15,069 nt of DNA from a virus: positions 1 through 15,069 of IMG/VR virus record IMGVR_UViG_3300048080_000424. One strand, written 5' to 3'. The translations under genes were made by a program, and so were the position numbers. The notes under the pieces were generated by a model. The model was not told the DNA's origin. It saw only the letters and a list, made by a program, of their open reading frames with translations, and did no database searches. Of the stretch, positions 1-15,069 are shown piece after piece (the first letter of the stretch is position 1; each line of letters starts with the position of its first letter).

Positions 1-127
1 TAAGGCGTTGGTGCTTGAGCGCTTCGGCATGGCGACCGAGTCGTCGCGTGAGCAGCACGTCGTTGCGCGCGTCGATATGCTGGTCGACTGGACAGTGGTT
101 GGCGAATCGTTCTGCGGCCGGTCGACC
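1..127. repeat. Terminal direct repeat, copy 1 (exact duplicate of 14943-15069); closure overlap
   Basis: Base-by-base comparison shows 1-127 (taaggcgttggtgcttgagc...ctgcggccggtcgacc) identical to 14943-15069. Unique unit length is 14,942 bp. Confidence 0.95.
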
Positions 128-238
128 TTCGTGCACGCGGTCGATCCGTTCGAGCGCAAGGGCCGCGAGGTGCGCTTCTGTCGTTTCTGTTCGAAGTGGG
201 GGCGCGTTGAGGTCTTTGCGTCCGGGGGCCGACGGTAG
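1..238 (+). CDS. 3' part of an 80-aa hypothetical ORF that spans the closure point (start ATG at 14938)
   Basis: The frame is continuous across the junction (ATG GCT AAG GCG TTG GTG ...) and ends at TAG 236-238. Third codon positions are mostly G/C and the composition is protein-like (MAKALVLERFGMATESSREQHVVARVDMLVDW...FCRFCSKWG). Its ATG overlaps the stop of the upstream ORF (ATGGCTAA). Position 1 is the third base of codon 2. Confidence 0.6.
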   Translation, partial: KALVLERFGMATESSREQHVVARVDMLVDWTVVGESFCGRSTFVHAVDPFERKGREVRFCRFCSKWGRVEVFASGGRR

Positions 239-242
239 AAGT

Positions 243-1121
243 ATGGGCGGACGCCGGCGGCAGCAGCTCGCGACCGTGGAGGTCATGGAGAAGTTCATCG
301 CGAGTAGGCGCGCGAAGAATCCGGGGTGTGATTCGTACGAACGGGCGCTGCGCTACTGCATCGGGAAGCTCGTTGCGGCGCACGAGTTCCTGCCGGATCG
401 GGTTGAGGACGTCGAGGCGGTGCTGGCGTCGATGAATGTGGGAGACGAGACGCACTACGACGTCTGGTTGGTGTTCCGGCGGATGTACGCGTGGGCGGCG
501 CGGCGGCTGGACGTGGTCGATGCTGCGTGCGAGATCGAGCGTCCGCGGCGCGACAAGCTGCGCGTGTTTCGCACGATCGAACAGGTTGATCTCGATCGTG
601 TGTTGTGGGTGAATCAGCGGCGCGTGAGGGACTACGCGATGCTCTTGGTTCTGGCCGATTGCGGCGCGCGGATTGGCGAGCTGCAGACGTTGACGGCGGA
701 ACGCGTGCAGCCCGGCTATCTAGTGTTGGAGGGCAAGACGGGGAAGCGCGAGGTGCCGATTCTCTCGAAGACGTTTGGTGCGCTTTCGCGGCTGCCGCAT
801 GGGTTGTGGGAGGCGCGTGATGGTGGGGAACTGGGTCTGGACGGCGCGAAGCGGGCTGTTCGCCGCGCTCTTGCGCGTGGTGGTGTTCGTGGTGGGCCGC
901 ACCTGCTGCGTCATACGTTTGGCCGGCTGTACATCAAGCGTGGTGGCGACGTGTTCTCTTTGCAGCGAATTATGGGGCACCGGCGGATCGAAACGACGAT
1001 GCGCTACGTGTACATGGACTTGCGGGACGTGAGCGAACAGCACCGGAAGTTCTCGCCGGTGGCCGGTGTGCACGAGGGCCGGCAGCTGTCGATGATGGAT
1101 GAGATGGAGGAGGTGGTCTAG
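243..1121 (+). CDS. int: Tyrosine recombinase / phage integrase
   Basis: ATG 243 lies 4 nt after the upstream TAG; an alternative ATG at 285 sits just behind GGAGG. The catalytic pattern occurs in the expected order: R in LADCGARIGEL, K in EGKTGKREVP, HLLRHTF (H-x-x-R), MGHRRIETT, and the Tyr in TTMRYVY. The 15-242 part of the tracked ORF overlaps the upstream gene out of frame and is R/S-rich shadow. Confidence 0.9.
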   Translation: MGGRRRQQLATVEVMEKFIASRRAKNPGCDSYERALRYCIGKLVAAHEFLPDRVEDVEAVLASMNVGDETHYDVWLVFRRMYAWAARRLDVVDAACEIERPRRDKLRVFRTIEQVDLDRVLWVNQRRVRDYAMLLVLADCGARIGELQTLTAERVQPGYLVLEGKTGKREVPILSKTFGALSRLPHGLWEARDGGELGLDGAKRAVRRALARGGVRGGPHLLRHTFGRLYIKRGGDVFSLQRIMGHRRIETTMRYVYMDLRDVSEQHRKFSPVAGVHEGRQLSMMDEMEEVV

Positions 1122-1361
1122 GTGGGGATGTCGTCTGGGGAGGTGCGGCTCGTCGCGTCGAGCAAGGCGGCGCCCGATCCGTTCGTGTCCGGCTCCGGCT
1201 GCTGGTGCCTGTCGTGCGGCTGTACGGACCGGCATGCGTGCGCTGCCGGGTGTCGCTGGCTCTGGTCGGACGTCGTTGTTGGCGTCGGTCTGTGTTCGAG
1301 TTGTGAGGAGTGGTTGGATGTCTACCCGCCTGCCGCTGCGCTGTCGCGCGTGCGGGGTTGA
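1122..1361 (+). CDS. Small cysteine-rich protein (8 Cys; GCWCLSCGCTDRHACAAGCRWLW...LCSSCEEW)
   Basis: GTG 1122 directly follows the int stop and lies 8 nt after AGGAGG (1108-1113); an alternative ATG is at 1128. Third positions are G/C-rich. The C-x-C-x2-C-G-C-T-D...A-C...G-C-x-W...L-C-S-x-C pattern looks like a metal-binding module that I recall from other phage/plasmid small proteins (not verified). Confidence 0.55.
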   Translation: MGMSSGEVRLVASSKAAPDPFVSGSGCWCLSCGCTDRHACAAGCRWLWSDVVVGVGLCSSCEEWLDVYPPAAALSRVRG

Positions 1362-1551
1362 GATCCGTTTCGAGACGCTGGAGTCGGGCCGGAAGCGGCC
1401 GTACGAAGTGGCGACCGGGAGGAATCATTTCGAGGTGTGCTCAGCTGCGGCGGCGTTCCGCAAGGGCTGGAGGCCTGCGGCGCTGCCCGCTGTAAACAAG
1501 CCGCGCGAGGGTGCGCAGTTGTCGATGGATATGGAGGCGCTGGATGATTAG
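1318..1551 (+). CDS. Small zinc-finger-like protein (C-x2-C ... H-x3-C)
   Basis: ATG 1318 lies 7 nt after GAGGAG (1305-1310). The protein is MSTRLPLRCRACGVEIRFETLESGRKRPYEVATGRNHFEVCSAA.... It overlaps the upstream ORF by 44 nt in another frame. Confidence 0.5.
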   Translation: MSTRLPLRCRACGVEIRFETLESGRKRPYEVATGRNHFEVCSAAAAFRKGWRPAALPAVNKPREGAQLSMDMEALDD

Positions 1552-1762
1552 TGGGAGTTGCTTGTTTCGGGTGGTGTCGGTGGCGGGCACGAAGACGAAG
1601 CCGAAGAACAAAGACGGGATGGCGTTCGCGACGGTGAGCCTACGCGTGCCGCTGGATGAGGAGGGCATCGAAGCGTTGTCGTGGCTGCATCAGGCAGAGA
1701 TCGACGGCGACGCGTTGGACGTGAAGATCGAGCCTACGGGCGCGAAGCGGCGGGCGGGGTGA
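1544..1762 (+). CDS. Hypothetical protein (72 aa)
   Basis: ATG 1544 overlaps the upstream stop (ATGATTAG). The product is MISGSCLFRVVSVAGTKTKPKNKDGMAFATVSLRVPLDEEGIEALSWLHQAEIDGDALDVKIEP.... The start is uncertain; an internal ATG lies near 1619. Confidence 0.45.
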   Translation: MISGSCLFRVVSVAGTKTKPKNKDGMAFATVSLRVPLDEEGIEALSWLHQAEIDGDALDVKIEPTGAKRRAG

Positions 1763-2007
1763 TGCCCGGGCTGCCGTGGTGGTGGCCGCTGGTCGCGGCG
1801 TGCGCGTGGTGGGGTCTGACGGGCTTCTACCTGGGCGTGCTGGCCGGCCAACGGTGGGACGCGCGCGGCTGGCTGTCTGGGTCGATGCGGCGGCGGTGGC
1901 GACGGTTCCGGGACGTCGCGCGGGTGGAGGGTGAGGCGCGTGTTGGCGCTGATTTCCGCTACCGATTCGCGGTCCGGCGGAAGCGACGAGGCGACCTTCG
2001 GGGCTGA
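1762..2007 (+). CDS. Small membrane protein (81 aa, one N-terminal TM helix, basic tail)
   Basis: ATG 1762 shares one base with the upstream TGA (TGATG). The sequence is MPGLPWWWPLVAACAWWGLTGFYLGVLAG followed by an R-rich tail. It is the last gene of the plus-strand unit. Confidence 0.5.
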   Translation: MPGLPWWWPLVAACAWWGLTGFYLGVLAGQRWDARGWLSGSMRRRWRRFRDVARVEGEARVGADFRYRFAVRRKRRGDLRG

Positions 2008-2040: not shown

Positions 2041-2115
2041 GTGAAGGCCTCGGGCGGCGCGCAGCGGCGCGTCCTGCCGACGTCCTGGTGCAGCCTGAAG
2101 CGTGGCTTCGCGGCG

Positions 2116-2172: not shown

Positions 2173-2778
2173 TTACGATGCCTTCTTCGTTGACCAGTCG
2201 CAGTAGACGCCTTCGCCGAGCTTCTCTGGGCAGTACACGCCGGAGTGGTGCTTCGACTGCTTCGCCCGTCCGTGAACGGGACACTTGGCGTTGTCGACGT
2301 TGACGGGCGTGGCTTGTGGTTCGGCTACGGGCTCAGGGCGGAGCGGTGTTGGTGGTGGCGGCGCCGTGTTCGCCGCGCGCGCCGTCTCCTTCTTCGTCTG
2401 TGCTGCCTGTCCCCATGCGGGCCGGAACAGGTCAACGTAGCGCGTGCCGGCCGCGAACGTTACGTACTGGTCGAGGTTGCTGCGCGTCTCGTCCGGCTGT
2501 TCGTCGAACTTCGAGATCGACACGTTGAACAGCCCGGCGCGCGCGCACCAAACGACGAGTTCGTCAGGCATCTGTATCAGGTCGAGCGTCCGGTTGTTGC
2601 GCTGGATGAACCGTGCTCCGGTCCCAGTGGTCGAACCGTCGAGCTGGTCGAGCTTCTCTGAGTCGAGATATTCTTCGAGCTCGCTCTTGCACGCTTCGAG
2701 GGCCTTCTTCGACCGAACGTAGGTGCCGAGGTGGATGAGGGCGCTGGTGATCATTGCTTGTGCTTCTTGCTCCTTCAC
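2173..2778 (-). CDS. Hypothetical protein (201 aa) with helical N-terminal half and C-terminal Cys/His zinc-ribbon-like motif
   Basis: GTG 2778 lies 10 nt after GAGGAG. Composition is protein-like and third positions are G/C-rich. The C-terminus is KCPVHGRAKQSKHHSGVYCPEKLGEGVYCDW. The N-terminal half (LEACKSELEEYLDSEKLDQLDG...ARFIQRNNRTLDLIQMPDELV) vaguely recalls Gp157/Gam-like phage proteins, which is a weak memory-based impression only. Confidence 0.65.
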   Translation of the reverse strand: MKEQEAQAMITSALIHLGTYVRSKKALEACKSELEEYLDSEKLDQLDGSTTGTGARFIQRNNRTLDLIQMPDELVVWCARAGLFNVSISKFDEQPDETRSNLDQYVTFAAGTRYVDLFRPAWGQAAQTKKETARAANTAPPPPTPLRPEPVAEPQATPVNVDNAKCPVHGRAKQSKHHSGVYCPEKLGEGVYCDWSTKKAS

Positions 2779-2872: not shown

Positions 2873-3012
2873 CACTCCTTCCTTCTGCGCAGGTTGAGCA
2901 TCTGGCCGATCTCTTCGACGGTTTTATTGAGCGCTGCCCAGCAGCGCGAGCACCACGGAAAGCCGGTTTTGATGGTGGTGGCTTGGCGGCCGCAGACGCA
3001 GTTGAGTTTCAT
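2872..3012 (-). CDS. Small zinc-ribbon-like protein (46 aa; C-x-C ... C-x2-C)
   Basis: ATG 3012 lies 8 nt after AAAGGA and overlaps the upstream stop (ATGA). The product is MKLNCVCGRQATTIKTGFPWCSRCWAALNKTVEEIGQMLNLRRRKE. Confidence 0.55.
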   Translation of the reverse strand: MKLNCVCGRQATTIKTGFPWCSRCWAALNKTVEEIGQMLNLRRRKE

Positions 3013-3227
3013 GCTGCTGTCCTTTCTGTGAGCGCGAGCGCGAGCTGTTGTTTGGGGTGTTGCAGCGCGCCGAGCACCGTGCAGGCGTGCGAGACGCGAC
3101 ACGGACCGACCGCCCGCCCGGCCACCGTGACGCCGGCGAAGCAGGGCGCGCACCAGCGGCGGAGCGACGCGAGCGGCACCGCGAAGCGGTGACAGCACGC
3201 GCACGGACGGAAGAACGCCGACGCCAC
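3009..3227 (-). CDS. Small cysteine-rich protein (72 aa, 7 Cys)
   Basis: GTG 3227 lies 1 nt after the TAG of the upstream ORF, and the stop overlaps the next ATG (ATGA). The product is VASAFFRPCACCHRFAVPLASLRRWCAPCFAGVTVAGRAVGPCRVSHACTVLG.... Third positions are almost all G/C. This is only the last 72 codons of the 344-aa tracked ORF. Confidence 0.45.
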   Translation of the reverse strand: MASAFFRPCACCHRFAVPLASLRRWCAPCFAGVTVAGRAVGPCRVSHACTVLGALQHPKQQLALALTERTAA

Positions 3228-3228
3228 G

Positions 3229-3525
3229 CTATGCCGCTGGTGGGAGCGCGCAGCCGGAGCAGCGCGTGCTAAGGCAGGACGGGCAGAGACCGGCGACCGC
3301 GACTTGTGCCGAGCGCAGCGCTGCGGCCGCCGGTGGGAGGCCGGCGGTGGCGGCGCGAAGGCCGCCGACCAGCCGGCACACGGAACACACGCCGGACGCC
3401 AGGTACGGCGACGGGGAGCCGCAGCGGACGCACGGCGAGAGCGGGAGACAGAGCCAGCAGCCGGAACCGCGACAGTGGGCACAGGCCCGAAGACAGACAG
3501 CGCAGGTGCAGGAGGTGAGTGCCAT
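3229..3525 (-). CDS. Cysteine-rich protein (98 aa, 15 Cys, seven C-x-x-C pairs)
   Basis: An internal ATG at 3525 is preceded by GAAAGGGG about 9 nt upstream. The product is MALTSCTCAVCLRACAHCRGSGCWLCLPLSPCVRCGSPSPYLASGVCSVCRLVGG...GLCPSCLSTRCSGCALPPAA. It includes one exact DnaJ-type C-x-x-C-x-G-x-G (CAHCRGSG). Third positions are G/C-rich. Confidence 0.5.
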   Translation of the reverse strand: MALTSCTCAVCLRACAHCRGSGCWLCLPLSPCVRCGSPSPYLASGVCSVCRLVGGLRAATAGLPPAAAALRSAQVAVAGLCPSCLSTRCSGCALPPAA

Positions 3526-4331
3526 GTGGGAGACCCCTTTCTGGATTGCAACCCCCGCCCCCGGACGGGGACGGCGAGCGCGTGGGCGACAGGGCCGGCG
3601 CACGCGAGCGCGGCGTCGGAACGCCGGTCGGCGTGTAGCGCGCGCGTGCCCGAAGCGCGCCGAAGGGGGGCGCAGGGCCGCGTATAATTAGCCCTGTGCC
3701 CGCGCGTGTAGCCGGACCCCCGAAGGGCGGGAAATGTGAGGGCGCGACTCGTGGGCGCGCTACCTGGTGAGCGGCGCGACGGCGCGTGAGCCGAGCCCGA
3801 GCCACGGCCACCTTTGCGGTTTAAGGGCTGTGCCGACCGCCAACAGGAGGTGCCTGTGGGGCGGGTGAGGCGAGCGAAAGAGGGGAACGAAGGGTGTTTG
3901 ATTGGGTTCAGTCGTTCCGTGGCGGTGAGCGCGCCTGAGAGCGGGCTGGGGGCACGCGAAAGGGGCGCCTGCGTACGCGGGTGAGCCGTACGACGCCGAC
4001 GTGCGCCGTGAGGCGTCGAGCGACGGGGGCCGCCGCCGGCCACAATGGTTCCCCGCTGAGAGAAGGGCCAGGCGGCGGGCCGGAGCGAAGGTCGCGGCGG
4101 CGTGGTGCGGCGGGTGAGGGTGGACCTGGGCCGGTGGGTGTGCAGACGGAGGCCCGCGAGCGCGTGCGCGCGCCGGTGGTGTGCCTGCCCGTGGGCGGCG
4201 CGAGCCGCCGAGGTGCGAGGTGGAGGCGTGGCGCTGAAGCCATACCCCTGAGTGGAGCGTCTGGGCCTGCTGGTGGTGGGTGTACGGGGTGGCCGTGGTT
4301 GTGCGAAGGCGCGCGAGGCAGGGGCCGGTGG
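3526..4331. other. 805-bp ORF-poor, G-rich (plus strand), hairpin-rich gap downstream of terL; function unknown (pac/cos, ori, ncRNA or decayed gene)
   Basis: No ORF here combines a start codon with protein-like composition. There are many short stable hairpins and recurring GTGAG / CGAAGG motifs. Details are given in the findings. Confidence 0.5.
3668..3701. promoter_or_regulatory. 11-bp stem displaying an AT-rich loop that contains a perfect TATAAT (plus strand, 3683-3688)
   Basis: GGGCGCAGGGC (3668-3678) pairs with GCCCTGTGCCC (3691-3701) with one G-T pair. The loop is cgcgTATAATta. This is the only AT-rich island in the gap. Confidence 0.4.
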
Positions 4332-5720
4332 TCAGCGTCCGCGGGCGACGCGGTGTTCGTGCTGCTGGGCGGCGTGGTTGGTGAGCGCCAACGAGATGAG
4401 GTAGTCGTCGTGTCCTTCGCTCGGGTCGAGGTAGAAGTTCATGAAGCCGCCGGGCAGGTAGTCGGCGCGCGCGAGTCGGAGTTCGCTCCAGAGTGTGCGC
4501 GACGCGTCGTCGGCTTCGTCGAGTTCGAAGAGCTTGAGGTGCCCGGTGATGGCGGCCTGCTGGAGGTCGAAGCCGAGTAGCGATTTCGAGGGGCGGGTGA
4601 ACTTCACGGCGTTGATGGTGGTGCGCTGGTGCACGCCGCGTGCGAGCAGAGCTGCGGTGGTTTCGCCGATGCCGGTCGCGTCGATGGTGAGCGTGTCGGG
4701 TCGCCACACGTCGTTGATGATGGAGAGGAGTTGGGGGATGAGGATGGCGTGGTCGGTGCCTTGCCACGAGAGCGCCTGTAAGACGGCGACGTGGTTCTGG
4801 GGGACGGGCTCGGCCTTTGTTGGGTGGGTGACGGCGGCGAAGGTGAGGACGGTACGGTCGTGGGCTTCGGGTCGGTCGTCGTCGCCGCCGGCGATGTCGA
4901 GACCGGCGACGATGCGAGCGGTGGGCGGGCGCGTGTCGCGCCGTGGCCAGTCGCCGCGCAGCTGTTCGAGCACGGTGGCGCTGAACAAGCGGCCCTTGCC
5001 GGGCAGTTGCTGCATTTCGTACTGCGTCGTGAACATGGGGTGGGTGGGGCCGAGACGAGCGCGTTCGGCTTCGACGTAGGTGCGGTACGTGGGGAGGTGG
5101 GTAGCGACGATGGTCCAGGGCACGATGAAGGAGCGCTGGATGCCGTCGCGCTGTTGCGCGCGCTGCGCGGCTGCGCGTTCGCGTCCGAGTAGGTCGAGCT
5201 CGGACCAAGGTGTGCCGTAGAGGATGGTCGTGGCGTTGTTGGCGGCGGCGAAGGGTTTGATTTCCTTGTCGTACTTGTCGATGGCGACGTCCTGTGCTTC
5301 GTCGATTTCAAGGAGCGGGTGTGCGGTGTGGCCGACGATGTTGGCCGAGGGTTCGGCGCTGAGGAAGGTGACGCGTGCGTCACCGACGCGGATGATGCGG
5401 CCGTCTTCGACGGCGTAGGGGACGTTGCCGGCGCGGAGGATGTCGCGCAGGCGGTCGCGCGAGAGCTTGACCTGGGGGTCGAGGGTGGGCGCGACCTTGA
5501 TGCAGTTGATGGGTGTGGGTGGTAGTGCGAGGTGGGGGTGGTGTTGTTGGAGGAGTACGGTCGCTTCGAGTGTGGCGCTGGTCTGGTTCTTGCCGGACTG
5601 GCGCGCCATTTCGAGGGTGAAGGTGAGGCCGAGGCCGAACTGTACCGAGTCGATGATGGCACGGGCGGGGGCGAGTTGGTAGGGCCGGAGCGGTGGGATG
5701 CCGCCGCCGTTGCTGGTCAC
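4332..5720 (-). CDS. terL: Terminase large subunit
   Basis: The product is 462 aa. It has a Walker A-like MARQSGKNQTS, a Walker B-like PLLEIDEAQD and a coupling-like ILYGTP. Nuclease-domain acidic motifs are VAGLDIAGGDD, TIDATGIGE and GHDDYLISLAL. The GTG start overlaps the portal stop (GTGA). Confidence 0.9.
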   Translation of the reverse strand: MTSNGGGIPPLRPYQLAPARAIIDSVQFGLGLTFTLEMARQSGKNQTSATLEATVLLQQHHPHLALPPTPINCIKVAPTLDPQVKLSRDRLRDILRAGNVPYAVEDGRIIRVGDARVTFLSAEPSANIVGHTAHPLLEIDEAQDVAIDKYDKEIKPFAAANNATTILYGTPWSELDLLGRERAAAQRAQQRDGIQRSFIVPWTIVATHLPTYRTYVEAERARLGPTHPMFTTQYEMQQLPGKGRLFSATVLEQLRGDWPRRDTRPPTARIVAGLDIAGGDDDRPEAHDRTVLTFAAVTHPTKAEPVPQNHVAVLQALSWQGTDHAILIPQLLSIINDVWRPDTLTIDATGIGETTAALLARGVHQRTTINAVKFTRPSKSLLGFDLQQAAITGHLKLFELDEADDASRTLWSELRLARADYLPGGFMNFYLDPSEGHDDYLISLALTNHAAQQHEHRVARGR

Positions 5721-9227: not shown

Positions 9228-9334
9228 GCGAGCCCCCAGAGGACGGCGACGGCGTAGGCGATGAGCGCGAGCGCGAAGAGGATGCAGTCGAGCGCGAGGA
9301 CGGGGTCTGGTGGGGTCGGCCAGATGCGTCTCAT
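9224..9334 (-). CDS. Holin-like single-TM peptide (36 aa)
   Basis: The product is MRRIWPTPPDPVLALDCILFALALIAYAVAVLWGLA. Its ATG overlaps the upstream stop (ATGA) and its stop overlaps the amidase GTG (GTGA). It is not in the ORF track. Confidence 0.5.
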   Translation of the reverse strand: MRRIWPTPPDPVLALDCILFALALIAYAVAVLWGLA

Positions 9335-9552
9335 GGCGTGTAGACCGCGGTGACGACGGCGTCGTCGGCCTTGGTCTCGTCAAATAGTACAACGCTGACG
9401 CGCCTGTCCACAATCATGTCGCCGGCGGCGATGCCCCGATTCGTGGGAACGCCGGAGAGCGACATGTGGATCGACCCGGTGAGCTGGACGCGGGCCTTGT
9501 ACGTGCCGGCGTCGAACGCCTTGAGCACGCCCGGGTGGATCGTTGCGGCCAT
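9331..9552 (-). CDS. Small OB-fold-like protein resembling baseplate spike/gpV cores (73 aa)
   Basis: The product is MAATIHPGVLKAFDAGTYKARVQLTGSIHMSLSGVPTNRGIAAGDMIVDRRVSVVLFDETKADDAVVTAVYTP. The pattern G-V-x-x-x-D...Y-x-A-x-V-Q...G-D-x-x-x-x-x-R-V-x-V-V-L-F is reminiscent of gpV/gp5-type spikes. Its ATG shares one base with the upstream TAA. Only the last 73 codons of the tracked ORF are credible. Confidence 0.4.
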   Translation of the reverse strand: MAATIHPGVLKAFDAGTYKARVQLTGSIHMSLSGVPTNRGIAAGDMIVDRRVSVVLFDETKADDAVVTAVYTP

Positions 9553-11492
9553 TAGACGCCTCCCAGGTGCACGGTCTGTTCGAACTTCGCCGGCTTGCCT
9601 CGGCGCCCACGCCGGAAGTTGAAGTCGAGCTGCCGGACGCGGCGCTTGATTTCGCCGGTGGCGGCGACGGCGTCGTCGAAGGCGATCACGTCGCCGGCTT
9701 CGAGGCCGCAGTGGGGCGGCGCCACGATGTGGCCGTGGTCTTGGTTCAGGATGGCTTTGCGGATGCGGGCGGCGGCGTGCGCGTTGAGGTCGGCGACGAC
9801 GGCGGTGTGCGGGTCGAGGCGGCGGTCTTGGATGGGTGAATCTTGGGCCTGCTCGGTGAAGTCGAACGCCTGGCCGAGCGCGGCGGCGTTGATGATTTCG
9901 GCGACGCTGACGCGCTGTTCGCGGCGAAGTTTGCTGGTGTAGATCGTGTGGCCCTGCGTGGTGTAGTCGTAGGCGGCGGCGTCGGTTGCGAGCGGTTCGA
10001 AGAGGTAGGCGAACTCTGCGGTGTGGCGGATGATGTCGGGTACGAGGTTCATCAGCGCGTCGAGGTTGTCGCCTGCGCTTTGGTGTGGGTGCAGGGCCCA
10101 TTCGAGGATGAAACTGGTGATTCGCGAGCTGCCGCCGATGTCGACCAGTTCGAGGCCGGCGGTGCCGAGCGCGTCTTGGATGAGCTGGCCGATCGTCAGG
10201 CCGGAGAACGTGCGCGACGTGCGGGGGCGGGCGTTGTCGAGCCAGAAGTCGGCGCCGCGCGTGTGGATGACGAACCTGCTGTCGCCGCCTTTGTGGTCGT
10301 GTTCCCAGTTTACGATCGTCTCGCGTGGGCCCGGTGAGGTGTCGCCGTCGTAGCCGATGGCGACGTGCAGGTTGTGGCCGACGGCGATGAGCGCGGGGAC
10401 GTCCTTGTAGCGGCCGTCGTTGTTGTCGAAGACGAAGCGGCCTTTGTGGTCGCGGAGTGATTCCGACCAGTGCGCTTCGATCAGGTCGGCGGTGAGGACG
10501 GTCGCCGCTGGCGCGTCGAAGGCGGCTTCAAGGACTTGGGCGGGGCGCGCGAGTACGGCCTTGTCGCTCGCGCCGCTGCCGGTGATCGTGATGGCGTAGC
10601 CATAGGCCGTGGTGTTGTTGAGCGGGATGGGCGTGACCCACGCGTTCGCGGCAAAGGCGAACGATGCGGGGAACCAGGTGTGGTACGTGCGCGTGTAGGC
10701 GGGGGCGCTGGCCCGCTTTTCGACGTAGAGGATGTGGTGGCGGTCGAGGGCGTTGATCTTCGCGGCCTGGAACGTGATGCCGCTGTCGGTCTCGGCGGTG
10801 ATGAGGTTGAGGAGTGCCGACCAGGTGTCGAGCGTTTGCGCGAAGCCGTTGCCGAGCGTGACGGTGAGCACGGCGGCGCGGGCGTCGGTCTTGACGCCGG
10901 TGAGGACGACGTGGAAGTCGCCCGCGAAGACCATGCCGACGGAGTTGATGCTGGTCATGCTGTTCGACCAGGCGGCGGGCGAGCCGAACGTGCCGGACGT
11001 CCGCTTGATGCGGCGCAGGGCGTTGCTCTGCTCGTAGACGATGCAGAGGTCGCCGCCGGTGGTGGTGTACTGTACGGCGATGCCCTGGGTGGTGGGGACG
11101 CCCGTGAGGATCGTCGTCTCGACGCCGAAGGATGTGCCTTGGTCTGTGCTCTCGCGGAACATGATCGAGGTGACGCGGTTGTAGACGACGATGACGCGCG
11201 TGTTGTTGATGGCGTGGATTGCGACTTCGTTGGAGTCGGTGCCGCCGCCGAGGTCGGCGAACGCGCCGCCTGTTCTCTTGTACTGGACGCGGCCCGAGGT
11301 GACGCGGGCCTGGTGCAGGTAGGTGGCGTCGCCGGCAGCGTCGTGCTTGTCGTCGGGGTCGCCGCCGGAGACGGTCTGGACGAACTGGAAGTGTCGTGCG
11401 CTACGGGTGAGTTCGTGCACTTCGATGGCGACGGTGGGGATGCCGCTGGGGGCGACTTGCTTTGCTTGCAGCGCGCCGCTGATGCTGCGCAT
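9552..11492 (-). CDS. Large tail protein: N-terminal BNR/Asp-box beta-propeller-like region fused to a gpD/hub-like C-terminal half
   Basis: The product is 646 aa. It has an Asp-box FRESTDQGTSFG (S-x-D-x-G-x-T-W/F). The C-terminal half (HKGRFVFDNNDGRY...AIGYDGD...RFVIHTRGADFWLDN...FSGLTIGQLIQDALGTAGLELV) resembles late-control-D / baseplate hub proteins by recollection. Confidence 0.5.
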   Translation of the reverse strand: MRSISGALQAKQVAPSGIPTVAIEVHELTRSARHFQFVQTVSGGDPDDKHDAAGDATYLHQARVTSGRVQYKRTGGAFADLGGGTDSNEVAIHAINNTRVIVVYNRVTSIMFRESTDQGTSFGVETTILTGVPTTQGIAVQYTTTGGDLCIVYEQSNALRRIKRTSGTFGSPAAWSNSMTSINSVGMVFAGDFHVVLTGVKTDARAAVLTVTLGNGFAQTLDTWSALLNLITAETDSGITFQAAKINALDRHHILYVEKRASAPAYTRTYHTWFPASFAFAANAWVTPIPLNNTTAYGYAITITGSGASDKAVLARPAQVLEAAFDAPAATVLTADLIEAHWSESLRDHKGRFVFDNNDGRYKDVPALIAVGHNLHVAIGYDGDTSPGPRETIVNWEHDHKGGDSRFVIHTRGADFWLDNARPRTSRTFSGLTIGQLIQDALGTAGLELVDIGGSSRITSFILEWALHPHQSAGDNLDALMNLVPDIIRHTAEFAYLFEPLATDAAAYDYTTQGHTIYTSKLRREQRVSVAEIINAAALGQAFDFTEQAQDSPIQDRRLDPHTAVVADLNAHAAARIRKAILNQDHGHIVAPPHCGLEAGDVIAFDDAVAATGEIKRRVRQLDFNFRRGRRGKPAKFEQTVHLGGV

Positions 11493-11496
11493 GGTG

Positions 11497-12129
11497 TTAG
11501 ACGGGCCCGGGGTCGGTGGTTTGCGAGCGCAGCCTGCCTCCGGCGGGCGTGTAGAGCTGTCCGGTGCGGAGCGTGTTGGCGACGGGGAGGTCGCGCAGCA
11601 TCTTTCGGAACTGGGCGAGGCGCTGTTCGCCGAACTCCTGGTACTTGCCCCAGACGTTGTCGCCGCCGACGTTGATGCGGTCGGTGGCGAAGGACGCTGT
11701 GTCGAGCGCTGCGTAGCCGGCGGCGCCCACGGCGATGATGTCGTCGTGGTGGGCGGGGAACGAGATCGTGCCGTTGATGGTGTGCTCCTGGTGGAGGAGG
11801 ATGTTGACGGTCTGGATGCTGCCGGGTGGGGTGGCGACGTCGAGCGTGATGTTATCCCCGAACAGGCTGAAGGGGACGTAGGCGGGTGGGTATTCGTTGA
11901 TGGGCCACTCGACTGCGACGATGCGGATGCGTGGCGTGGTGGGGATGCTGATGATGCGTGAGCCGGCCGTGGTGGCTGCGGCGGCGAGAACTTCTTTGGG
12001 CGAGACCTGCGAGTAGTCGCGGAGGGCGTGCTTGATGTGGCGGTCGAGCACGGCGTCGGTCCAGCGAACGTTGGTTTCGTCGTGCAGGTCTTGTTCGACT
12101 GTGGCGCGGATGGTGGCGAGTGAGCTCAT
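11497..12129 (-). CDS. Head-tail adaptor/connector-like structural protein (210 aa)
   Basis: ATG 12129 overlaps the upstream stop (ATGA). The N-terminus MSSLATIRATVEQDLHDETNVRWTDAVLDRHIKHALRDYSQ resembles gp6-like connector N-termini. The call is also based on its position among structural genes. Confidence 0.35.
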   Translation of the reverse strand: MSSLATIRATVEQDLHDETNVRWTDAVLDRHIKHALRDYSQVSPKEVLAAAATTAGSRIISIPTTPRIRIVAVEWPINEYPPAYVPFSLFGDNITLDVATPPGSIQTVNILLHQEHTINGTISFPAHHDDIIAVGAAGYAALDTASFATDRINVGGDNVWGKYQEFGEQRLAQFRKMLRDLPVANTLRTGQLYTPAGGRLRSQTTDPGPV

Positions 12130-12839
12130 GGCGTGCGTGCCCTCCGTGGGCTGCGCGGCCGCGCTCCGGGTGCACCGAAGGAGGGGCGGTGTGGAACGCG
12201 CGGCCGCTGCGCCCCGATCGGTTGCAGCGTAGCACGTCGTTGTTCGATGCCGCCTTCGAGCGGGTCGTAGTCGACTTCGAGGTACCAGATGTTCGAGCCG
12301 TACTCGCGCGAGCGCCAGGCGAACTGGTGGTTGACGAGGGGGTTCTCGTCGTTCAGGCGCGTGATGATGCTGAGGATGCCGGCGCGGTTGGCGAGCGCGT
12401 CTTCGACCAGCGGTTTGAGGCCGGTGATGGAGTGCCAGCCGGTGGCGGTCGCCTCGGTGTAGGTGAGCTTTGCAGGCGGGCCTACTTCGTCCACGTCGCC
12501 GCCGAAGGTGACCCAGGAGCCGACGCCGTCGTACTTCTTCGAGGTGACGCCGAGCTCGGTCCATTCGTCGGGGCGGGTGCAGCGCATGAGGACGGCCTGT
12601 ACGCCGCCTGGGTTGATGATGTCGAACATGTAGCGGTGCAGGGAGGCGGCGTTGATCGTTTTTGGGTCGATGACGTTGAGGTCGAAGTTCGCGATCGCGC
12701 GGTTCCACGAGAGCTTGAGGCCGCCGAGGTAGGTGGCGCGGTGTACGCAGTAGAGTTCGGTGCCAAAGTTCACGTCCTGCGTCGCGCCGATGCCCGAGAG
12801 AAACGAATCGATCGTAGGGGTGATCTCGACGGTCGTCAC
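12126..12839 (-). CDS. DNRLRE-domain-like protein (237 aa), possible receptor-binding/tail accessory
   Basis: GTG 12839 overlaps the upstream stop (GTGA). The segments IDSFLSGIGATQDVNFGTELYCVHRATYLGGLKLSWNRAIANFDL...INAASLHRYMF and ...GWHSITGLKPLVEDAL...FAWRSREYGSNIWYLEVDY match the DNRLRE-domain layout as I remember it. The last ~45 codons are R/P-rich with weaker third-position G/C. Confidence 0.45.
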   Translation of the reverse strand: MTTVEITPTIDSFLSGIGATQDVNFGTELYCVHRATYLGGLKLSWNRAIANFDLNVIDPKTINAASLHRYMFDIINPGGVQAVLMRCTRPDEWTELGVTSKKYDGVGSWVTFGGDVDEVGPPAKLTYTEATATGWHSITGLKPLVEDALANRAGILSIITRLNDENPLVNHQFAWRSREYGSNIWYLEVDYDPLEGGIEQRRATLQPIGAQRPRVPHRPSFGAPGARPRSPRRARTP

Positions 12840-13282
12840 GCCGGCGGCCGCTGCTTCATCTGGCGCTGCGCGTCGGCGAGGTCGATGACGAAGAGCCAGT
12901 AGCCGACCTCGCCGGTGAGCTGGTTGTAGCCGATGTCCTGTACGTCGCCTTTGAACTGTTCGGTGATGCGTTCGAGTAGGCGGCGATCGTGGATCTCCAT
13001 GTCGCCTTTCGTGAAGCCGCGCGCGAGTGATTCGTCGATGCAAGCGGCGACCAGGTCTTGGGCGAGCCGCCAGTTCGGTGGGTCGGTGGCGACGGCGCCC
13101 ATGTGCACTGTGTCGCCGGCGTCGGGTAGCAGGAGCGTCGCGGCGCCCTTTGTCGTGCCGCGTGCGTCTGCAACGATCACGTGCAGGGCGTGGCGGTTCT
13201 CGGCGATGCCTGGTAGCAGTTCGCGCACGCGGTCGCGGTCGGCGGGGCGTTCCTTGCGAATCACCGGCGCCACCGGAGCCAC
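12836..13282 (-). CDS. Hypothetical protein (142-148 aa) with weak GNAT-fold-like layout
   Basis: The start is GTG 13282 or, more in keeping with the local pattern, GTG 13264, which overlaps the upstream TGA (GTGA). The segment IRKERPADRDRVRELL...HVIVADARGTTKGAATLLL...VHMGAVATDP...LVAACIDESLARGFTKGDMEI resembles an acetyltransferase fold. It lacks the R/Q-x-x-G-x-G/A motif. Confidence 0.5.
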   Translation of the reverse strand: MAPVAPVIRKERPADRDRVRELLPGIAENRHALHVIVADARGTTKGAATLLLPDAGDTVHMGAVATDPPNWRLAQDLVAACIDESLARGFTKGDMEIHDRRLLERITEQFKGDVQDIGYNQLTGEVGYWLFVIDLADAQRQMKQRPPA

Positions 13283-13404: not shown

Positions 13405-13405
13405 G

Positions 13406-13747
13406 TTAGGTGGCTCCTGCGCGGTCGGCGATCAGGTCGGCGACCATGTCGGCAACGCTGGTGTGCAGCTGCGCGGTTTCTTCCTTCGAGAGGCCGTAGT
13501 TGATGGCGACCATGCGGGTGATGGTGCGCATGAACGCGAGGAAGATTTCGAGGTTCTCGGGCTCGTTGTGGACCAGCTCCATGGCGCGGGCGCGGGTGAC
13601 GGCGATTTCGTGAGCGAGCTGGTGGGGTTCGAGGTCTACGGCCCGACGGAGAAATTTCCGTCCGGCGGTGCCGAGCCCTTCCGCGTAGTAGCCGTGCTTG
13701 AAGGCGTTGCGATTACCCGGCTGCGCTCCGGGCTTGCGACGCGCCAC
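13406..13747 (-). CDS. Possible terminase small subunit / DNA-binding protein (113 aa)
   Basis: The start is GTG. The N-terminal RRKPGAQPGNRNAFKHGYYAEG resembles the G-N-x-N-A-x-K-H-G-x-Y/F motif that I recall near the N-terminus of some small terminases. The remainder is helical. The assignment is tentative. Confidence 0.35.
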   Translation of the reverse strand: MARRKPGAQPGNRNAFKHGYYAEGLGTAGRKFLRRAVDLEPHQLAHEIAVTRARAMELVHNEPENLEIFLAFMRTITRMVAINYGLSKEETAQLHTSVADMVADLIADRAGAT

Positions 13748-13750: not shown

Positions 13751-13969
13751 TTAGGACCTCGTGGGGATGGCGATCGGTTGCTGCTGCGCGTTGCTCAGGG
13801 CGTCGATGAGGAGGCGGCCGAGCTCCTGGGGCGAGCGGCGCGGCTCGGGGGCGTGCTGGCGTAGTTCGTGGAGGTAGTCGAGGGTGCCGGTGATGGTGAG
13901 GAGCGCGGCGGTGTCCCAGTCCTGGCGTTCGAGCGCCGACTTCATCATCTGCGACGGTTTCCGAGCCAT
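13751..13969 (-). CDS. Hypothetical protein (72 aa)
   Basis: ATG 13969 has no SD but lies 6 nt downstream of TGATAGACT, an extended -10-like element, so the mRNA may be leaderless. The product is MARKPSQMMKSALERQDWDTAALLTITGTLDYLHELRQHAPEP.... Confidence 0.45.
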   Translation of the reverse strand: MARKPSQMMKSALERQDWDTAALLTITGTLDYLHELRQHAPEPRRSPQELGRLLIDALSNAQQQPIAIPTRS

Positions 13970-14266: not shown

Positions 14267-14319
14267 TGGAGCGGGAGAAGGGGCTCGAACCCTCGACCCT
14301 CTGCTTGGGAAGCAGAGGG
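14267..14319 (-). other. attP core candidate: 3' half of a tRNA-Gly(CCC), from anticodon arm to CCA; not a complete tRNA
   Basis: The minus strand reads CCCTCTGC-TTCCCAA-GCAGAGGG (anticodon arm, anticodon CCC), then TC, then GAGGG-TTCGAGC-CCCTT (T arm), then CTCCCGC-T-CCA (acceptor 3' strand, discriminator, CCA). No GCGGGAG 5' acceptor strand or D arm lies upstream. Confidence 0.7.
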
Positions 14320-14332
14320 TGGAAAACGTTGT

Positions 14333-14355
14333 CCTTCTGCTGTAGTAGCAGAGGG
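14333..14355. repeat. Second copy of the anticodon-stem inverted repeat with a different spacer
   Basis: The plus strand reads CCTTCTGCT-gtagt-AGCAGAGGG here, against CCCTCTGCT-tggga-AGCAGAGGG at 14297-14319. AGCAGAGGGT is repeated exactly, 36 bp apart. Confidence 0.5.
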
Positions 14356-14374
14356 TCGTTTCGCTTCTGAGGTG

Positions 14375-14404
14375 TTGACGGGCGGCGGCGCGGTCGCGTA
14401 TCGT
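14375..14404 (+). promoter_or_regulatory. Sigma70-like promoter candidate for the plus-strand unit
   Basis: TTGACG (14375-14380), an 18-bp spacer, then TATCGT (14399-14404). It lies about 45 nt upstream of the SD-led ATG at 14448. Confidence 0.4.
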
Positions 14405-14411
14405 CTCGATC

Positions 14412-14420
14412 GTAAAGACC
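14412..14420 (+). repeat. GTAAAGACC direct repeat, copy 2 (candidate integrase arm-type site)
   Basis: The same 9-mer as at 14178-14186. It lies just downstream of the putative early promoter. Confidence 0.35.
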
Positions 14421-14447
14421 TGGTGACCGGGCGACAAAGGAGGCAGC

Positions 14448-14945
14448 ATGCCGGAGCCTGTTCGTCGGCTAACCGACGGCCATCAGCCGCCGCTCGTTCG
14501 TTCGATTCCTGGTGGCTCACGCGCGCGATCTGAACGAAGTGATCTGAACGAAAGAAAGAGTGAAAATTCGTTCCTTCGTTCCTTCCCTCAGATCGTTCCT
14601 TCAGATCGGCCGCGCCCGCGGCGGCGTTTGACGCCGACGGGCGCGCGGGTCGCGCGTTGGCTGGAGCGCTGGGTCCCTGTGGAACGTTACGACGGGCCGG
14701 TGCACACGCTGCCAGAGGGCGACGCGACGTTCTATGGTGCGCGCGGTTTTCTTCTCTGCTACGGCGAAGAGCTGGTGCTGACGGCGTTGGCGGACCTGTT
14801 CGTTGATTACGATCCGGAGACCGTCGAGTGGACGTTGCCGCGCGGCGCCCGCTGGCGTGTTCGGTGCTGGCGTCCGGAGATCTATCACCCGGCGCGTTAC
14901 CTGAACTTCTACGTGAAGCAGCTGCGGGGGCTAGCCGATGGCTAA
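14448..14945 (+). CDS. Hypothetical protein (165 aa); N-terminal third doubtful
   Basis: A strong SD, AAAGGAGG, lies 4 nt before ATG 14448. The C-terminal ~105 aa (ARWLERWVPVERYDGPVHTLPEGDATFYGARGFLLCYGEELVLTALADLFVDYDPETVEW...) has G/C-rich third positions. The first ~60 codons have weak third-position bias and contain the GATCTGAA dyad. An in-frame TTG at 14628 is an alternative start without an SD. Confidence 0.55.
   Translation: MPEPVRRLTDGHQPPLVRSIPGGSRARSERSDLNERKSENSFLRSFPQIVPSDRPRPRRRLTPTGARVARWLERWVPVERYDGPVHTLPEGDATFYGARGFLLCYGEELVLTALADLFVDYDPETVEWTLPRGARWRVRCWRPEIYHPARYLNFYVKQLRGLADG
14526..14608. promoter_or_regulatory. 83-bp imperfect palindrome carrying four GATCTGA(A/G) sites around an AT-rich centre
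   Basis: GATCTGAA occurs at 14527-14534 and 14541-14548. Inverted copies are CTCAGATC at 14587-14594 and TTCAGATC at 14600-14607. The dyad centre is at about 14567 in gagtgaaaattcg. TTCGTTCC occurs in tandem at 14567-14582. Confidence 0.5.
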
Positions 14946-15069
14946 GGCGTTGGTGCTTGAGCGCTTCGGCATGGCGACCGAGTCGTCGCGTGAGCAGCAC
15001 GTCGTTGCGCGCGTCGATATGCTGGTCGACTGGACAGTGGTTGGCGAATCGTTCTGCGGCCGGTCGACC
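14938..15069 (+). CDS. 5' part of the 80-aa closure-spanning ORF (continues as 1-238)
   Basis: ATG 14938 overlaps the TAA of the 165-aa ORF (ATGGCTAA). The ORF runs off the window end in frame and resumes at position 1. Confidence 0.6.
   Translation, partial: MAKALVLERFGMATESSREQHVVARVDMLVDWTVVGESFCGRST
14943..15069. repeat. Terminal direct repeat, copy 2 (exact duplicate of 1-127)
   Basis: Same comparison as copy 1. An ORF reads straight through the closure point. Confidence 0.95.

Follow-up and report, generated by a model that had tools for sequence, protein, structure and literature searches.

A self-closing 14,942-bp viral genome, probably that of a small temperate short-tailed Chloroflexota phage

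Genes and features of a self-closing unit

The window, by which we mean the whole 15,069-nucleotide stretch of viral DNA analysed here, begins and ends with the same 127 bp, an exact match that leaves a unit of 14,942 bp. In our reading of the ORFs, an 80-codon frame crosses the closure (ATG 14938 to TAG 238), its first 8 nt coinciding with the end of the 165-aa ORF that precedes it. A related contig of 14,132 bp (L029) is fully syntenic with the window and has its own break elsewhere; in its interior the 165-aa gene, the junction ORF and the integrase gene are contiguous, in the same way as across the window's 14942/1 join. Because L029 holds the junction internally, the closure proposed in the earlier note is independently confirmed. 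Judged from its sequence, the 14,942-bp unit is a complete, self-closing genome with the following features:

1..127 (= 14943-15069), no strand: terminal overlap, the closure mark of the 14,942-bp unit
285..1121, + strand: tyrosine integrase (PF00589, E 1.2e-14; phrog_1, E 3e-26)
1099..2007, + strand: three small overlapping ORFs, no family match
2173..2778, - strand: 201-aa protein with a C-terminal zinc ribbon, of a rare family (poor model, pLDDT 56)
3009..4331, no strand: 1.3 kb of non-coding DNA, 71-73% GC; 3132-3231 and 3532-3733 are constrained blocks
3520..3775, no strand: conserved structured non-coding element, with the window's only TATAAT at 3683
4332..5720, - strand: terminase large subunit (phrog_2, E 1.5e-9; weak Terminase_6C)
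5717..7039, - strand: portal (SPP1_portal, E 5e-25; phrog_64, E 9e-35; weak SU10_portal)
7208..8173, - strand: HK97-type major capsid protein (phrog_212, E 5e-52)
8178..8594, - strand: 138-aa scaffold-like protein rich in Ala and Glu, encoded immediately upstream of the capsid
8598..9413, - strand: N-acetylmuramoyl-L-alanine amidase, PGRP/T7-lysozyme type (PGRP-LB, E 1.6e-5)
9331..9552, - strand: 73-aa protein next after the hub, a candidate docking domain for a spike or needle
9552..11492, - strand: tail hub, 646 aa, with an N-terminal beta-propeller and a C-terminal gp27/Mu gp44/VgrG-type hub
11497..12135, - strand: head-to-tail adaptor with an SU10/T7-type helix-bundle N-terminus (weak PF24175 SU10_adaptor)
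12126..12830, - strand: CBM96/disaggregatase-repeat-like protein, carbohydrate-binding, receptor-binding candidate
12836..13282, - strand: 148-aa protein, first gene of a five-gene tail block
13406..13747, - strand: small-terminase-like protein, 113 aa (weak phrog_370 terS, E 5e-4)
13751..13969, - strand: 72-aa protein, first gene of the leftward arm, with coding signal and 94% identical in L029
14267..14318, - strand: attP core, the 3' 52 nt of tRNA-Gly(CCC) (anticodon arm, T-arm and acceptor 3' end)
14375..14404, + strand: TTGACG-18-TATCGT, a promoter-like consensus match preceding the rightward arm
14448..14945, + strand: 165-aa protein, conserved partner upstream of the integrase
14938..15069, continuing at 128-238, + strand: 80-aa ORF (L029 homologue 40% identical, E 7e-12)

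The presence of an integrase together with a tRNA-type attP would fit a temperate element. ARAGORN detects no full tRNA in the window, and the attP region gives a weak Rfam tRNA match (23 bits, 14270-14340), but an exact match to its last 28 nt occurs in 38 tRNA-Gly-type genes with several anticodons on metagenome contigs, and at the attP position relatives have tRNA-like sequences of Thr or Pro type. The earlier note had suggested that integrated copies would lie beside tRNA-Gly genes; our search found no skewed copy with a tRNA-Gly flank. In the rightward arm, the putative promoter is the window's only sigma-70-like match, at consensus level, and the 165-aa protein, which matches no family, has homologues adjoining the integrase in L004, L029, L036 and L040. 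The three small ORFs downstream of the integrase (a Cys-rich one at about 1320-1551, one at 1511-1762, and one at 1681-2007 with a transmembrane segment) are conserved in L029 only, at 57-77% identity, and the last is a holin-like candidate. No repressor or excisionase was recognised in the window.

The leftward arm carries the head and packaging genes. The large terminase subunit is conserved in 38 loci and the small-terminase-like protein in 21-23. The capsid protein is at most 35% identical to those of cultured phages, while relatives' capsids match Pfam Phage_capsid, GP7 and SU10_MCP. The scaffold-like protein matches no family; its position and its conservation in 22-32 loci suggest the function.

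Much of this inventory had been anticipated from the letters alone: integrase and attP, large terminase, portal, HK97-type capsid, hub-like protein and amidase are all borne out by family or fold matches or, for attP, by the tRNA-Gly(CCC) 3' end, and the lack of a polymerase agrees with the lack of any such family match. Other assignments survive in part. Position and conservation uphold the scaffold, though no family does; for the holin, only small transmembrane peptides were seen; and the spike-like protein could be either the 73-aa protein, by inference, or the CBM96-like protein.

A tail module without a recognised tube

The best-characterised tail component is the hub. Its AlphaFold2 model (pLDDT 85.8) matches gp27, Mu gp44 and VgrG in Foldseek searches of the PDB (E 1e-17 to 1e-11), with a TM-score of about 0.7 over some 340 residues against 1wru and 3d37; its BFVD matches include phage protein D and Mu gpP, and its N-terminal part matches sialidase- and lectin-type propellers. 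The adaptor, conserved in 48 loci, matches PF24175 SU10_adaptor at E 1.4e-4, below the Pfam cut-off, and relatives' adaptors match it likewise weakly. CBM96 is found in five of five family members (best E 1.3e-8; Disaggr_repeat, 2.5e-7), whereas the window's own copy reaches only E 0.07 and 0.013. The 73-aa protein has no family or PDB match; conserved in 26-33 loci, it corresponds in other members to the N-terminus of a fibre-like protein of 360-640 aa. Adaptor, hub and 73-aa protein are contiguous in nearly all members, and the 148-aa gene always stands ahead of the CBM96-adaptor-hub-p73 series, including at the chromosomal loci L063, L066 and L067. The amidase probably starts near 9227, and its homologue in one relative matches Amidase_2 (E 1e-4).

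The window yielded no tail tube, tape measure, terminator or recognised nozzle family, and no tube, sheath or tape-measure gene was recognised in it or its relatives. The window's tail would comprise adaptor, hub, 73-aa protein and CBM96-like protein only, assignments that, except for the hub, are weak or positional. A gp27-type hub normally forms the tip of a tube, and we know of no solved short tail in which such a hub sits on an adaptor. The fold of T4 gp27, Mu gp44, P2 gpD and VgrG matches the C-terminal ~340 residues of the 646-aa protein, but in those systems the hub closes off a tube assembled on a tape measure.

In SU10 and T7, the adaptor is a 12-mer to which a nozzle that contains a propeller and a needle are attached (PMC9509320). 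The order of adaptor, propeller-containing protein and small protein in the window parallels that of SU10/T7 phages and points to a podovirus-type layout, with which the weak SU10-family matches of the window's portal and adaptor and of relatives' capsids are in agreement. There are also differences: in the window the fusion partner of the propeller is a hub of the gp27/Mu gp44 type instead of nozzle domains, SU10-kind fibres and ejection proteins are lacking, and the genome is 3-5 times smaller and has an integrase.

Strand asymmetry and replication

At four-fold sites one strand of the window has a GC skew between +0.4 and +0.5 regardless of gene orientation: in + strand terms, G is 0.54-0.66 against 0.22 for C, and T exceeds A, in genes of both strands. 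The skew is uniform over the whole 14,942-bp unit. Relatives are likewise skewed (|skew| ~0.25), in spite of block rearrangements and inversions; the capsid orthologues of L011 (79% identity) and L032 (71%) are encoded on the opposite, G-rich strand, and at their third positions G stands at about 0.55, where C at about 0.70 is otherwise seen. As controls, Streptomyces phage Rowa has a four-fold skew of 0.01, and in the chromosomal copies G and C are about balanced.

For mitochondrial asymmetry, the accepted account is that the strand left single-stranded becomes enriched in G+T (PMC3269012, PMC4182315). Animal mitochondria, rolling-circle plasmids and ssDNA phages, like the window, have one strand G+T-rich throughout, and in asymmetrically replicating genomes as in the window the effect is most marked at four-fold sites and does not depend on gene orientation. 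Unlike the window, however, they are not terminase-packaged HK97 elements, and with no identifiable Rep protein or D-loop machinery the window resembles them in compositional footprint only. From composition alone, we infer that it replicates in one direction.

What might carry out or initiate such replication? No window ORF matches a polymerase or other replication family, initiators included, and about one third of the genes have no assignment. The 201-aa protein belongs to a family with 12 representatives at E<1e-10 among 1.84 billion; its zinc ribbon also occurs in a Rad52/22-domain protein, making it a candidate DNA-binding, recombination or replication accessory protein. The non-coding region, about 10% of the genome, shows no coding signal and differs from L029 by many indels of lengths not multiples of 3. 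Its two constrained blocks are nevertheless 89-94% identical to L029, against 80-81% at terL/portal third codon positions. In the structured element, none of 73 predicted pairs is broken between window and L029, and variation affects 5 of 146 paired columns but 32 of 116 unpaired ones; the fold has a z-score of -2.8 on the + strand and -1.5 on the - strand. The element was not found beyond these two sequences, and is a candidate origin or priming site.

Relatives and the nature of the element

The window is one of about 60 related metagenomic contigs, classed as viral by IMG/VR and there at most 16.9 kb long except for one of 30.7 kb, which consists of head-to-tail units with no host DNA. In a 5.8-billion-protein collection, capsids at least 66% identical likewise come from contigs no longer than 16.0 kb, with the same exception. 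Gene blocks are shuffled among relatives, and in L040, a circular relative of 12.4 kb, the entire tail block is missing, so that at least some members cannot make their own tail. Non-skewed, vertically conserved partial copies adjoin ruvB in five lineages of Chloroflexota, which homologues in chromosomes and a single binned contig suggest as host. Neither the strand asymmetry nor the shuffled, tail-less and ruvB-adjacent relatives had figured in the earlier note.

That note's view of a complete, non-chimeric genome is sustained by the size ceiling of the family. The genome is small, as it also held, but no record: the smallest isolated tailed phage has 11.6 kb, and IMG/VR contains 2,728 contigs of 11.6-20 kb with terminal repeats (10.1101/2025.06.18.659913). 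The absence of relatives from larger phage-like contigs speaks against its worry that homologues might always reside in larger prophages. Autonomy it argued from tail-hub, spike and lysis genes; hub and amidase do set the window apart from a classic capsid-forming PICI, but no tube, tape measure or replication protein was recognised, and autonomy itself is no more than probable.

An assembly artefact, either a chimera or a falsely circularised piece of a larger prophage, is very improbable. The 127-bp overlap does match a common maximum k-mer, and closure is ambiguous in one relative, a 15,246-bp contig that is one lap between a 181-bp stretch common to two capsid genes of the 30.7-kb contig. 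Yet L029 crosses the junction with gene order unchanged, the join-crossing ORF has a homologue, larger phage-like contigs hold no relative, and the skew is uniform over the unit. A capsid-forming satellite, with its own head, packaging and distal tail tip but dependent on a helper for tube and tape measure, replication or induction, deserves more weight, though we consider it unlikely. Known cf-PICIs resemble the window in size (10-15 kb), integrase, lack of a tail tube and possession of their own HK97 capsid, portal, terminase subunits and head-tail adaptor; tube, tape-measure and replication genes are unrecognised here, the hub fold normally sits on a tube, and L040, which presumably borrows a tail and fits the cf-PICI pattern better than the window does, shows that the family can lose tail genes. 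However, cf-PICIs have a recognisable replication/primase module and regulators and no tail-tip or lysis genes, whereas the window has hub, CBM96-like binding protein and amidase and no recognisable replication module, and adaptor, hub and 73-aa protein stay together. Moreover, hub homologues occur only on contigs of at most 16 kb or in chromosomal remnants, and no larger phage with a related hub, adaptor or capsid was found, so no candidate helper is visible.

Less likely again is an episomal, plasmid-like or defective particle-forming element, passing to or from domesticated Chloroflexota chromosomal modules, in which one-directional replication takes precedence over infection. The extreme skew implies long extrachromosomal self-replication, the ruvB-adjacent relatives are vertically conserved and unskewed, and a tenth of the genome is non-coding with a conserved structured element. 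Against this, packaging, head, tail-tip, amidase and integrase genes and attP are intact and conserved in the ~60 contigs, these are viral according to IMG/VR, and partition or plasmid replication genes were not found.

We favour, with some reserve, the complete genome of a small temperate short-tailed Chloroflexota phage with a stub tail and one-directional replication; an autonomous, minimal, podovirus-like phage is the most likely reading. phi29-like and other protein-primed podoviruses and Mycoplasma phage P1 (11.6 kb) are comparable in size and in minimal virion genes, but these smallest tailed phages are linear and non-integrative, with terminal proteins and their own DNA polymerase, whereas the window is self-closing, with an integrase and no polymerase. 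In such a phage, scaffold and capsid protein would assemble around the portal into a head filled by the terminase; the hub would sit straight on an adaptor ring at the portal and close it off, and the 73-aa protein would act as a plug or as the dock for a spike. Propeller and CBM96 protein may bind cell-surface glycans, amidase and small membrane peptides may serve lysis or cell-wall entry, and lysogeny would follow integration into tRNA-Gly. Host enzymes would replicate the genome in one direction, by a rolling-circle or strand-displacement mode that leaves the + strand single-stranded for long periods, and C-to-T deamination there would render neutral sites G+T-rich in both gene orientations. 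The window belongs to an undescribed family of 12.4-17-kb elements.

Closure, gene content and integration site

The two ends of the window are identical over exactly 127 bases, the longest overlap present, which leaves a unit of 14,942 bp with a GC content of 66.8%. An ORF of 80 codons starts at ATG 14938, runs across the join and stops at TAG 238, overlapping the stop of the upstream 165-aa ORF by 8 nt. A related IMG/VR contig of 14,132 bp (L029), which has the gene content and order of the window and a portal and TerL that are 90% identical, ends between its CBM96-like and adaptor genes, and carries the 165-aa ORF, the junction ORF and the integrase gene contiguously in its interior. The join is therefore no mere by-product of the assembler, and the self-closing unit proposed in an earlier note from the sequence alone holds. 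Judged on sequence, the map is circular; a circle, a concatemer and a circularly permuted linear molecule all fit it. That the unit is a chimera or a falsely circularised prophage fragment is very improbable. Its size is by itself unexceptional (10.1101/2025.06.18.659913).

Since the high GC content yields many spurious ORFs, real genes were picked by codon-position GC and amino-acid composition, which gives a unit that is about 82% coding. The genes lie in two divergent arms, a short rightward arm from 14448 through the junction to about 2007 and a long leftward arm from 13969 to 2173, with attP and a promoter-like site between them.

Genes and features of the unit, by arm; the leftward arm is in transcription order
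Rightward arm: 165-aa protein, 80-aa junction ORF and three small ORFs (one with a transmembrane segment); no family match
Rightward arm: tyrosine integrase; PF00589 E 1e-14, phrog_1 E 3e-26
Leftward arm, first: 72-aa protein; no match
Leftward arm, second: terS-like protein; weak, phrog_370 E 5e-4
Leftward arm, third: 148-aa protein; no assigned function
Leftward arm, fourth: CBM96/disaggregatase-repeat-like protein; 5/5 family members match, best E 1e-8, window copy only E 0.07
Leftward arm, fifth: adaptor; weak SU10_adaptor match, E 1.4e-4
Leftward arm, sixth: 646-aa hub protein; structure model and Foldseek
Leftward arm, seventh, after the hub: 73-aa protein
Leftward arm, eighth: amidase; PGRP-LB E 1.6e-5, a relative's homologue matches Amidase_2
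Leftward arm, ninth: scaffold-like protein; position only
Leftward arm, tenth: HK97-fold major capsid protein; phrog_212 E 5e-52
Leftward arm, eleventh: portal; SPP1_portal E 5e-25
Leftward arm, twelfth: TerL; phrog_2 E 1.5e-9, weak Terminase_6C
Leftward arm, after TerL: non-coding stretch of 1.3 kb
2173-2778, minus strand, end of the leftward arm: 201-aa zinc-ribbon protein

The capsid assignment is backed by full-length tblastn matches to annotated capsid genes and by Pfam Phage_capsid matches in relatives, and the unit thus has the HK97-fold capsid, portal and large terminase of the Caudoviricetes. In family profile searches no ORF of the unit matched a polymerase, primase, helicase, Rep protein, repressor or excisionase, which bears out the earlier statement that a polymerase is lacking. 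The 201-aa protein matched nothing in Pfam, PHROG, NCBIfam or PDB, and its structure model was too poor for a search. Dozens of small proteins have the same C-terminal zinc ribbon (CPxH...YC...YCxW), as does a single protein with a Rad52/22 strand-annealing domain, which hints at a role on single-stranded DNA. In many relatives (L005, L006, L007, L010, L021, L023, L025, L048 and L059) the ~230 nt that follow the terS-like gene encode a conserved single-transmembrane peptide of about 45 aa. In the window, an unrelated transmembrane peptide ORF (2779-2874, minus strand, ATG 2874) overlaps the beginning of the 201-aa gene; L029 lacks it.

Between the arms, positions 14267-14318 on the minus strand read CCTCTGC-TTCCCAA-GCAGAGG, then a T-arm and ...CTCCCGCTCCA, which corresponds to the anticodon arm (anticodon CCC), T-arm and acceptor 3' end of a tRNA-Gly. 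The Rfam tRNA score over this region is a sub-threshold 23 bits, the only Rfam match obtained, and ARAGORN found no full tRNA gene in the window. On metagenome contigs, the last 28 nt of the attP core are identical to 38 tRNA-Gly-type genes with several anticodons, and tRNA-Gly(CCC) on two GC-rich contigs differs from the core at just two variable-region positions. A tyrosine recombinase (PF00589) together with an attP that duplicates a tRNA 3' end characterises the temperate, tRNA-integrating class, and by these features the element is built as a temperate one that targets a tRNA gene. In relatives the corresponding position, upstream of the 165-aa ORF and integrase genes, is occupied by tRNA-like sequences of Thr(GGT) or Pro(GGG) type (L004 6891-6981; L011 4002-4080; L036 5967-6048), and the integrases of these relatives are only 40-49% identical to that of the window; the family appears to have switched integration targets.

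Integrated copies beside tRNA-Gly(CCC) genes, which the earlier note had suggested looking for, did not materialise in the genomes or metagenome contigs searched, at least not with the strand skew described below. A pattern-limited scan of 185,579 species genomes with capsid patterns found no integrated skewed copy, its only yield being three short contigs from the bins of metagenome-assembled genomes. The metagenome contigs contain no exact match to the 52-nt attP core, and the 38 loci with the 28-nt tRNA 3' end are, within a pattern-limited search, tRNA-Gly genes of the usual kind, spread over many taxa and with none of the element's genes close by.

A hub-type protein and the make-up of the putative tail

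The structure model of the 646-aa protein has a pLDDT of 85.8. In Foldseek searches about 340 of its residues align to baseplate hubs (E 1e-17 to 1e-11), among them those of the Algoriphagus, Anabaena and Streptomyces injection systems, Mu gp44, T4 gp27, VgrG and P2 gpD-type proteins, and against 1wru and 3d37, hubs of 325 residues, the TM-score is about 0.7. Further matches are to sialidase-, lectin- and GH43-type beta-propellers. Placed on the secondary-structure map, the predicted propeller is N-terminal and the predicted hub C-terminal. The 73-aa protein that follows (window 9331-9552) is a free-standing copy of a domain found N-terminally in fibre-like proteins of 360-640 aa in other members (L037 7848-8933; L046 10798-12723), and because its domain heads such proteins we infer that it may dock a central spike or fibre on the hub. 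Neither the 73-aa nor the CBM96-like protein had a match when PDB sequences were searched with profiles.

The tail parts identified are thus the adaptor (a weak match), the hub (a strong one), the 73-aa protein and the CBM96-like protein. Neither in the unit nor in any relative was a tube, sheath, tape-measure or terminator gene recognised, and profile searches gave no match to a nozzle family among the proteins of the unit. In SU10 and T7 the adaptor is a 12-mer; attached to it is a hexameric nozzle that is built around a seven-bladed propeller and closed by a needle (PMC9509320). The window shares with short-tailed phages the order adaptor, propeller-bearing protein, small protein, and there are weak matches to SU10 families for its portal and adaptor and for the capsids of relatives. 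In the stub tail that these parts suggest, the hub-type protein would stand in for the nozzle. We know of no solved example of a short tail with such a protein in that place.

Strand asymmetry and a conserved non-coding element

The plus strand of the unit is rich in G and T (G 6108 versus C 3961; T 2953 versus A 2047), with an overall GC skew of +0.21 that is positive in all 600-bp windows. At four-fold sites, in plus-strand terms, the leftward genes have G 0.655, C 0.221, T 0.089 and A 0.034 (GC skew +0.50, AT skew -0.45) and the rightward genes G 0.538, C 0.218, T 0.176 and A 0.068 (+0.42 and -0.44). Since the skew is alike in both orientations, the bias is a property of the strand and not of coding sense. 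All related contigs of at least 9 kb have an absolute skew of 0.15-0.32, and capsid orthologues on the opposite strand (L011, 79% identity; L032, 71%) are G-rich at third positions (0.53-0.55), where the other orientation is C-rich (0.70). A strand that is G+T-rich over the whole genome is seen in the window, L004, L006, L011, L029, L032, L036 and others. As controls, a GC-rich Streptomyces phage has a four-fold skew of 0.01, and Chloroflexota chromosomal genes, resident copies of the phage genes included, have G close to C or follow the local host skew.

Transcription-coupled deamination and codon-usage selection were rejected as causes because both predict dependence on gene orientation: the absolute skew is equal in both orientations, and it is the C+A-rich strand that codes most genes, the opposite of what deamination predicts. 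In mitochondria, asymmetric replication with a long-lived single strand leaves one strand G+T-rich throughout, with no change of sign (PMC3269012, PMC4182315). From the composition of the unit we infer one-directional rolling-circle or strand-displacement replication in which the plus strand is displaced.

The stretch at 3009-4331 has no codon-position signal, and compared with L029 it contains indels of 1, 2, 5, 13, 29 and 61 nt among others; as these are not multiples of three, a hidden gene was rejected. Two blocks within it are 89-94% identical to L029, a figure that falls to 80-81% for third positions in the adjacent genes. A search of the stretch turned up neither iterons nor significant repeats. 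Positions 3520-3775 have a predicted structure common to the window and L029, with 73 pairs and none broken: five of the 146 paired columns vary, every pair being kept, versus 32 of the 116 unpaired (Fisher p 2e-8, an optimistic value, as the structure was derived from the same two sequences). The only TATAAT in the window (3683) lies inside this element. Both 3520-3775 and 3132-3231 are non-coding and more conserved than neighbouring synonymous sites. The element at 3520-3775 could be a candidate origin or single-stranded-DNA priming site; this stays a lead, since a covariance model found the element nowhere beyond the window and L029.

Relatives, chromosomal modules and the nature of the element

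Searches with the capsid yielded 56 loci in IMG/VR, plus three short contigs of metagenome-assembled genomes that binning had assigned to Binatia, Gemmatimonadales and Chloroflexi. The earlier note had raised the prospect that close homologues might always sit inside larger prophages; the related contigs are instead small, with lengths that cluster at 12.4-16.9 kb. In a 5.8-billion-protein collection, no contig that encodes a capsid at least 66% identical is longer than 16.0 kb, except one of 30,725 bp (L107 and L108; ENA ERZ27247320 k141_3047327), of which 28.9 kb were read. It holds two-and-a-bit syntenic but different units head to tail, 65-72% identical in nucleotides, with capsid genes 15,065 bp apart, the same skew throughout and no host DNA; a tandem array, a heterodimer circle and an assembly-graph path could each account for it. 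The loci considered here include L038 and L051 as well. IMG/VR contig 3300031576_001024 (15,246 bp) is exactly one lap between a 181-bp stretch common to both capsid genes, which makes its closure ambiguous: it was rejected as a third closed circle, its overlap being that stretch shared by two different capsid genes, and it could come from a circle, from a tandem array, or from an assembly graph traversed as a figure eight.

Gene order within the family is fluid. Some members have terL-portal-scaffold-capsid-adaptor-hub, others, like the window, adaptor-hub...scaffold-capsid-portal-terL, and in still others the tail block is inverted. Against window 4332-13747, the terL, portal, scaffold-capsid, adaptor-hub-73-aa and terS blocks are shuffled in order or orientation in L004, L006, L010, L032, L036 and L037, with proteins still 25-90% identical between members. 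Capsid identity to cultured phages is at most 35%, and when the complete unit was compared by megablast with a set of 50,697 phage records, no nucleotide similarity to cultured phages emerged. Our literature searches found no description of the family or of a gene-transfer-agent-like locus in Chloroflexota.

Taken together, we favour an autonomous, minimal, temperate short-tailed phage as the most likely reading, with somewhat better than even confidence; the observations of the earlier note, which had read the unit as a complete miniature temperate tailed-phage-like genome, were right, and its interpretation was largely so. The main competitor, which we think considerably less likely, is a helper-dependent satellite. 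Like the capsid-forming PICIs, the unit combines an integrase with its own capsid, portal and terminase in 10-15 kb, and satellite-like forms do occur within the family: L040 (IMGVR_UViG_3300022665_000989, 1-12534), closed at 12,390 bp by an exact 144-bp overlap within its portal gene, still encodes the 201-aa protein along with int, terS, amidase, scaffold, capsid, portal and terL; as the entire five-gene tail block is missing, it resembles a satellite that arose inside its own family. Capsid-forming PICIs, however, have no tail or lysis genes, whereas the unit has a hub and an amidase. They are also marked by a replication module (primase/Rep and origin) and by dependence on a helper phage; no replication family was matched in the unit, and the homologues of its hub and capsid pointed to no candidate helper. 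We consider a mainly episomal or defective element less probable again. The favoured phage would also be distinct from the phi29-like, protein-primed podoviruses, which have a family B DNA polymerase, a terminal protein and linear genomes with inverted terminal repeats; the unit has no ORF matching a polymerase and a circular map with a direct 127-bp overlap.

Hub and capsid homologues are also present on chromosomal contigs of 21 kb to 1.56 Mb, in every case with ruvB adjoining. RuvB clusters from these contigs carry the NCBI name Chloroflexota. Copies linked to ruvB occur in five Chloroflexota lineages, between which RuvB is 66-79% identical and the gene subsets differ.

Gene subsets at ruvB-linked loci
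L060: terL, split portal, truncated adaptor, hub, p70
L061 and L065: scaffold-like, capsid, adaptor, hub, p68
L063, L066 and L067: capsid, then 148-aa protein, CBM96, adaptor, hub, p77
L109 and L110: adaptor, hub, p71, then two host genes, then scaffold-like and capsid

The ORFs of these copies are intact, unskewed and interspersed with host genes, with no integrase adjoining. Between L109 and L110 the capsid is 80% and RuvB 79% identical, the hub only 42%, and in the hub tree one chromosomal group is nested within the clade of the window. The loci look like old, selected, possibly gene-transfer-agent-like modules that swap parts with the free elements, and may represent a domesticated particle module. 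As judged from their genes alone, they share with gene transfer agents a chromosomal, vertically inherited and integrase-less character; the window, self-closing and with int and attP, is unlike such agents, which are not self-packaging. The ruvB-linked loci also provide the best available host assignment, putatively Chloroflexota. This phylum is abundant in soils and sediments, and to our knowledge has almost no characterised phages.

A bolder reading is more tentative, and we think it less likely than not. The elements would be autonomous viruses and the smallest temperate tailed phages known, with an entire tail consisting of an adaptor ring capped directly by a gp27-type hub, a tube-less design not yet seen; having no replication gene of their own, they would replicate by strand displacement or rolling circle with a mitochondrion-like mutational footprint, and would have given rise both to tail-less satellites (L040) and to the ruvB-linked particle module of Chloroflexota, domesticated and passed on vertically.

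Whichever reading is preferred, four features in combination set the element apart: a hub tail that apparently has no tube, the lack of a recognised replication gene, an extreme strand bias independent of orientation, and a series from free element to tail-less derivative to chromosomal module. With about 20 genes, the family would represent a minimal temperate tailed virion, and it allows a test of the least that is needed for a DNA-delivering tail, an adaptor and a hub. The skew persists through block inversions and is gone in the chromosomal copies. It can therefore serve as a natural experiment on the influence of replication mode on base composition, and as a marker, read from sequence alone, that tells actively replicating episomes or viruses from resident copies. 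With free elements, conserved chromosomal modules and a derivative that has lost its tail existing side by side, the family is a compact system for following the passage from phage to satellite and from phage to domesticated particle.
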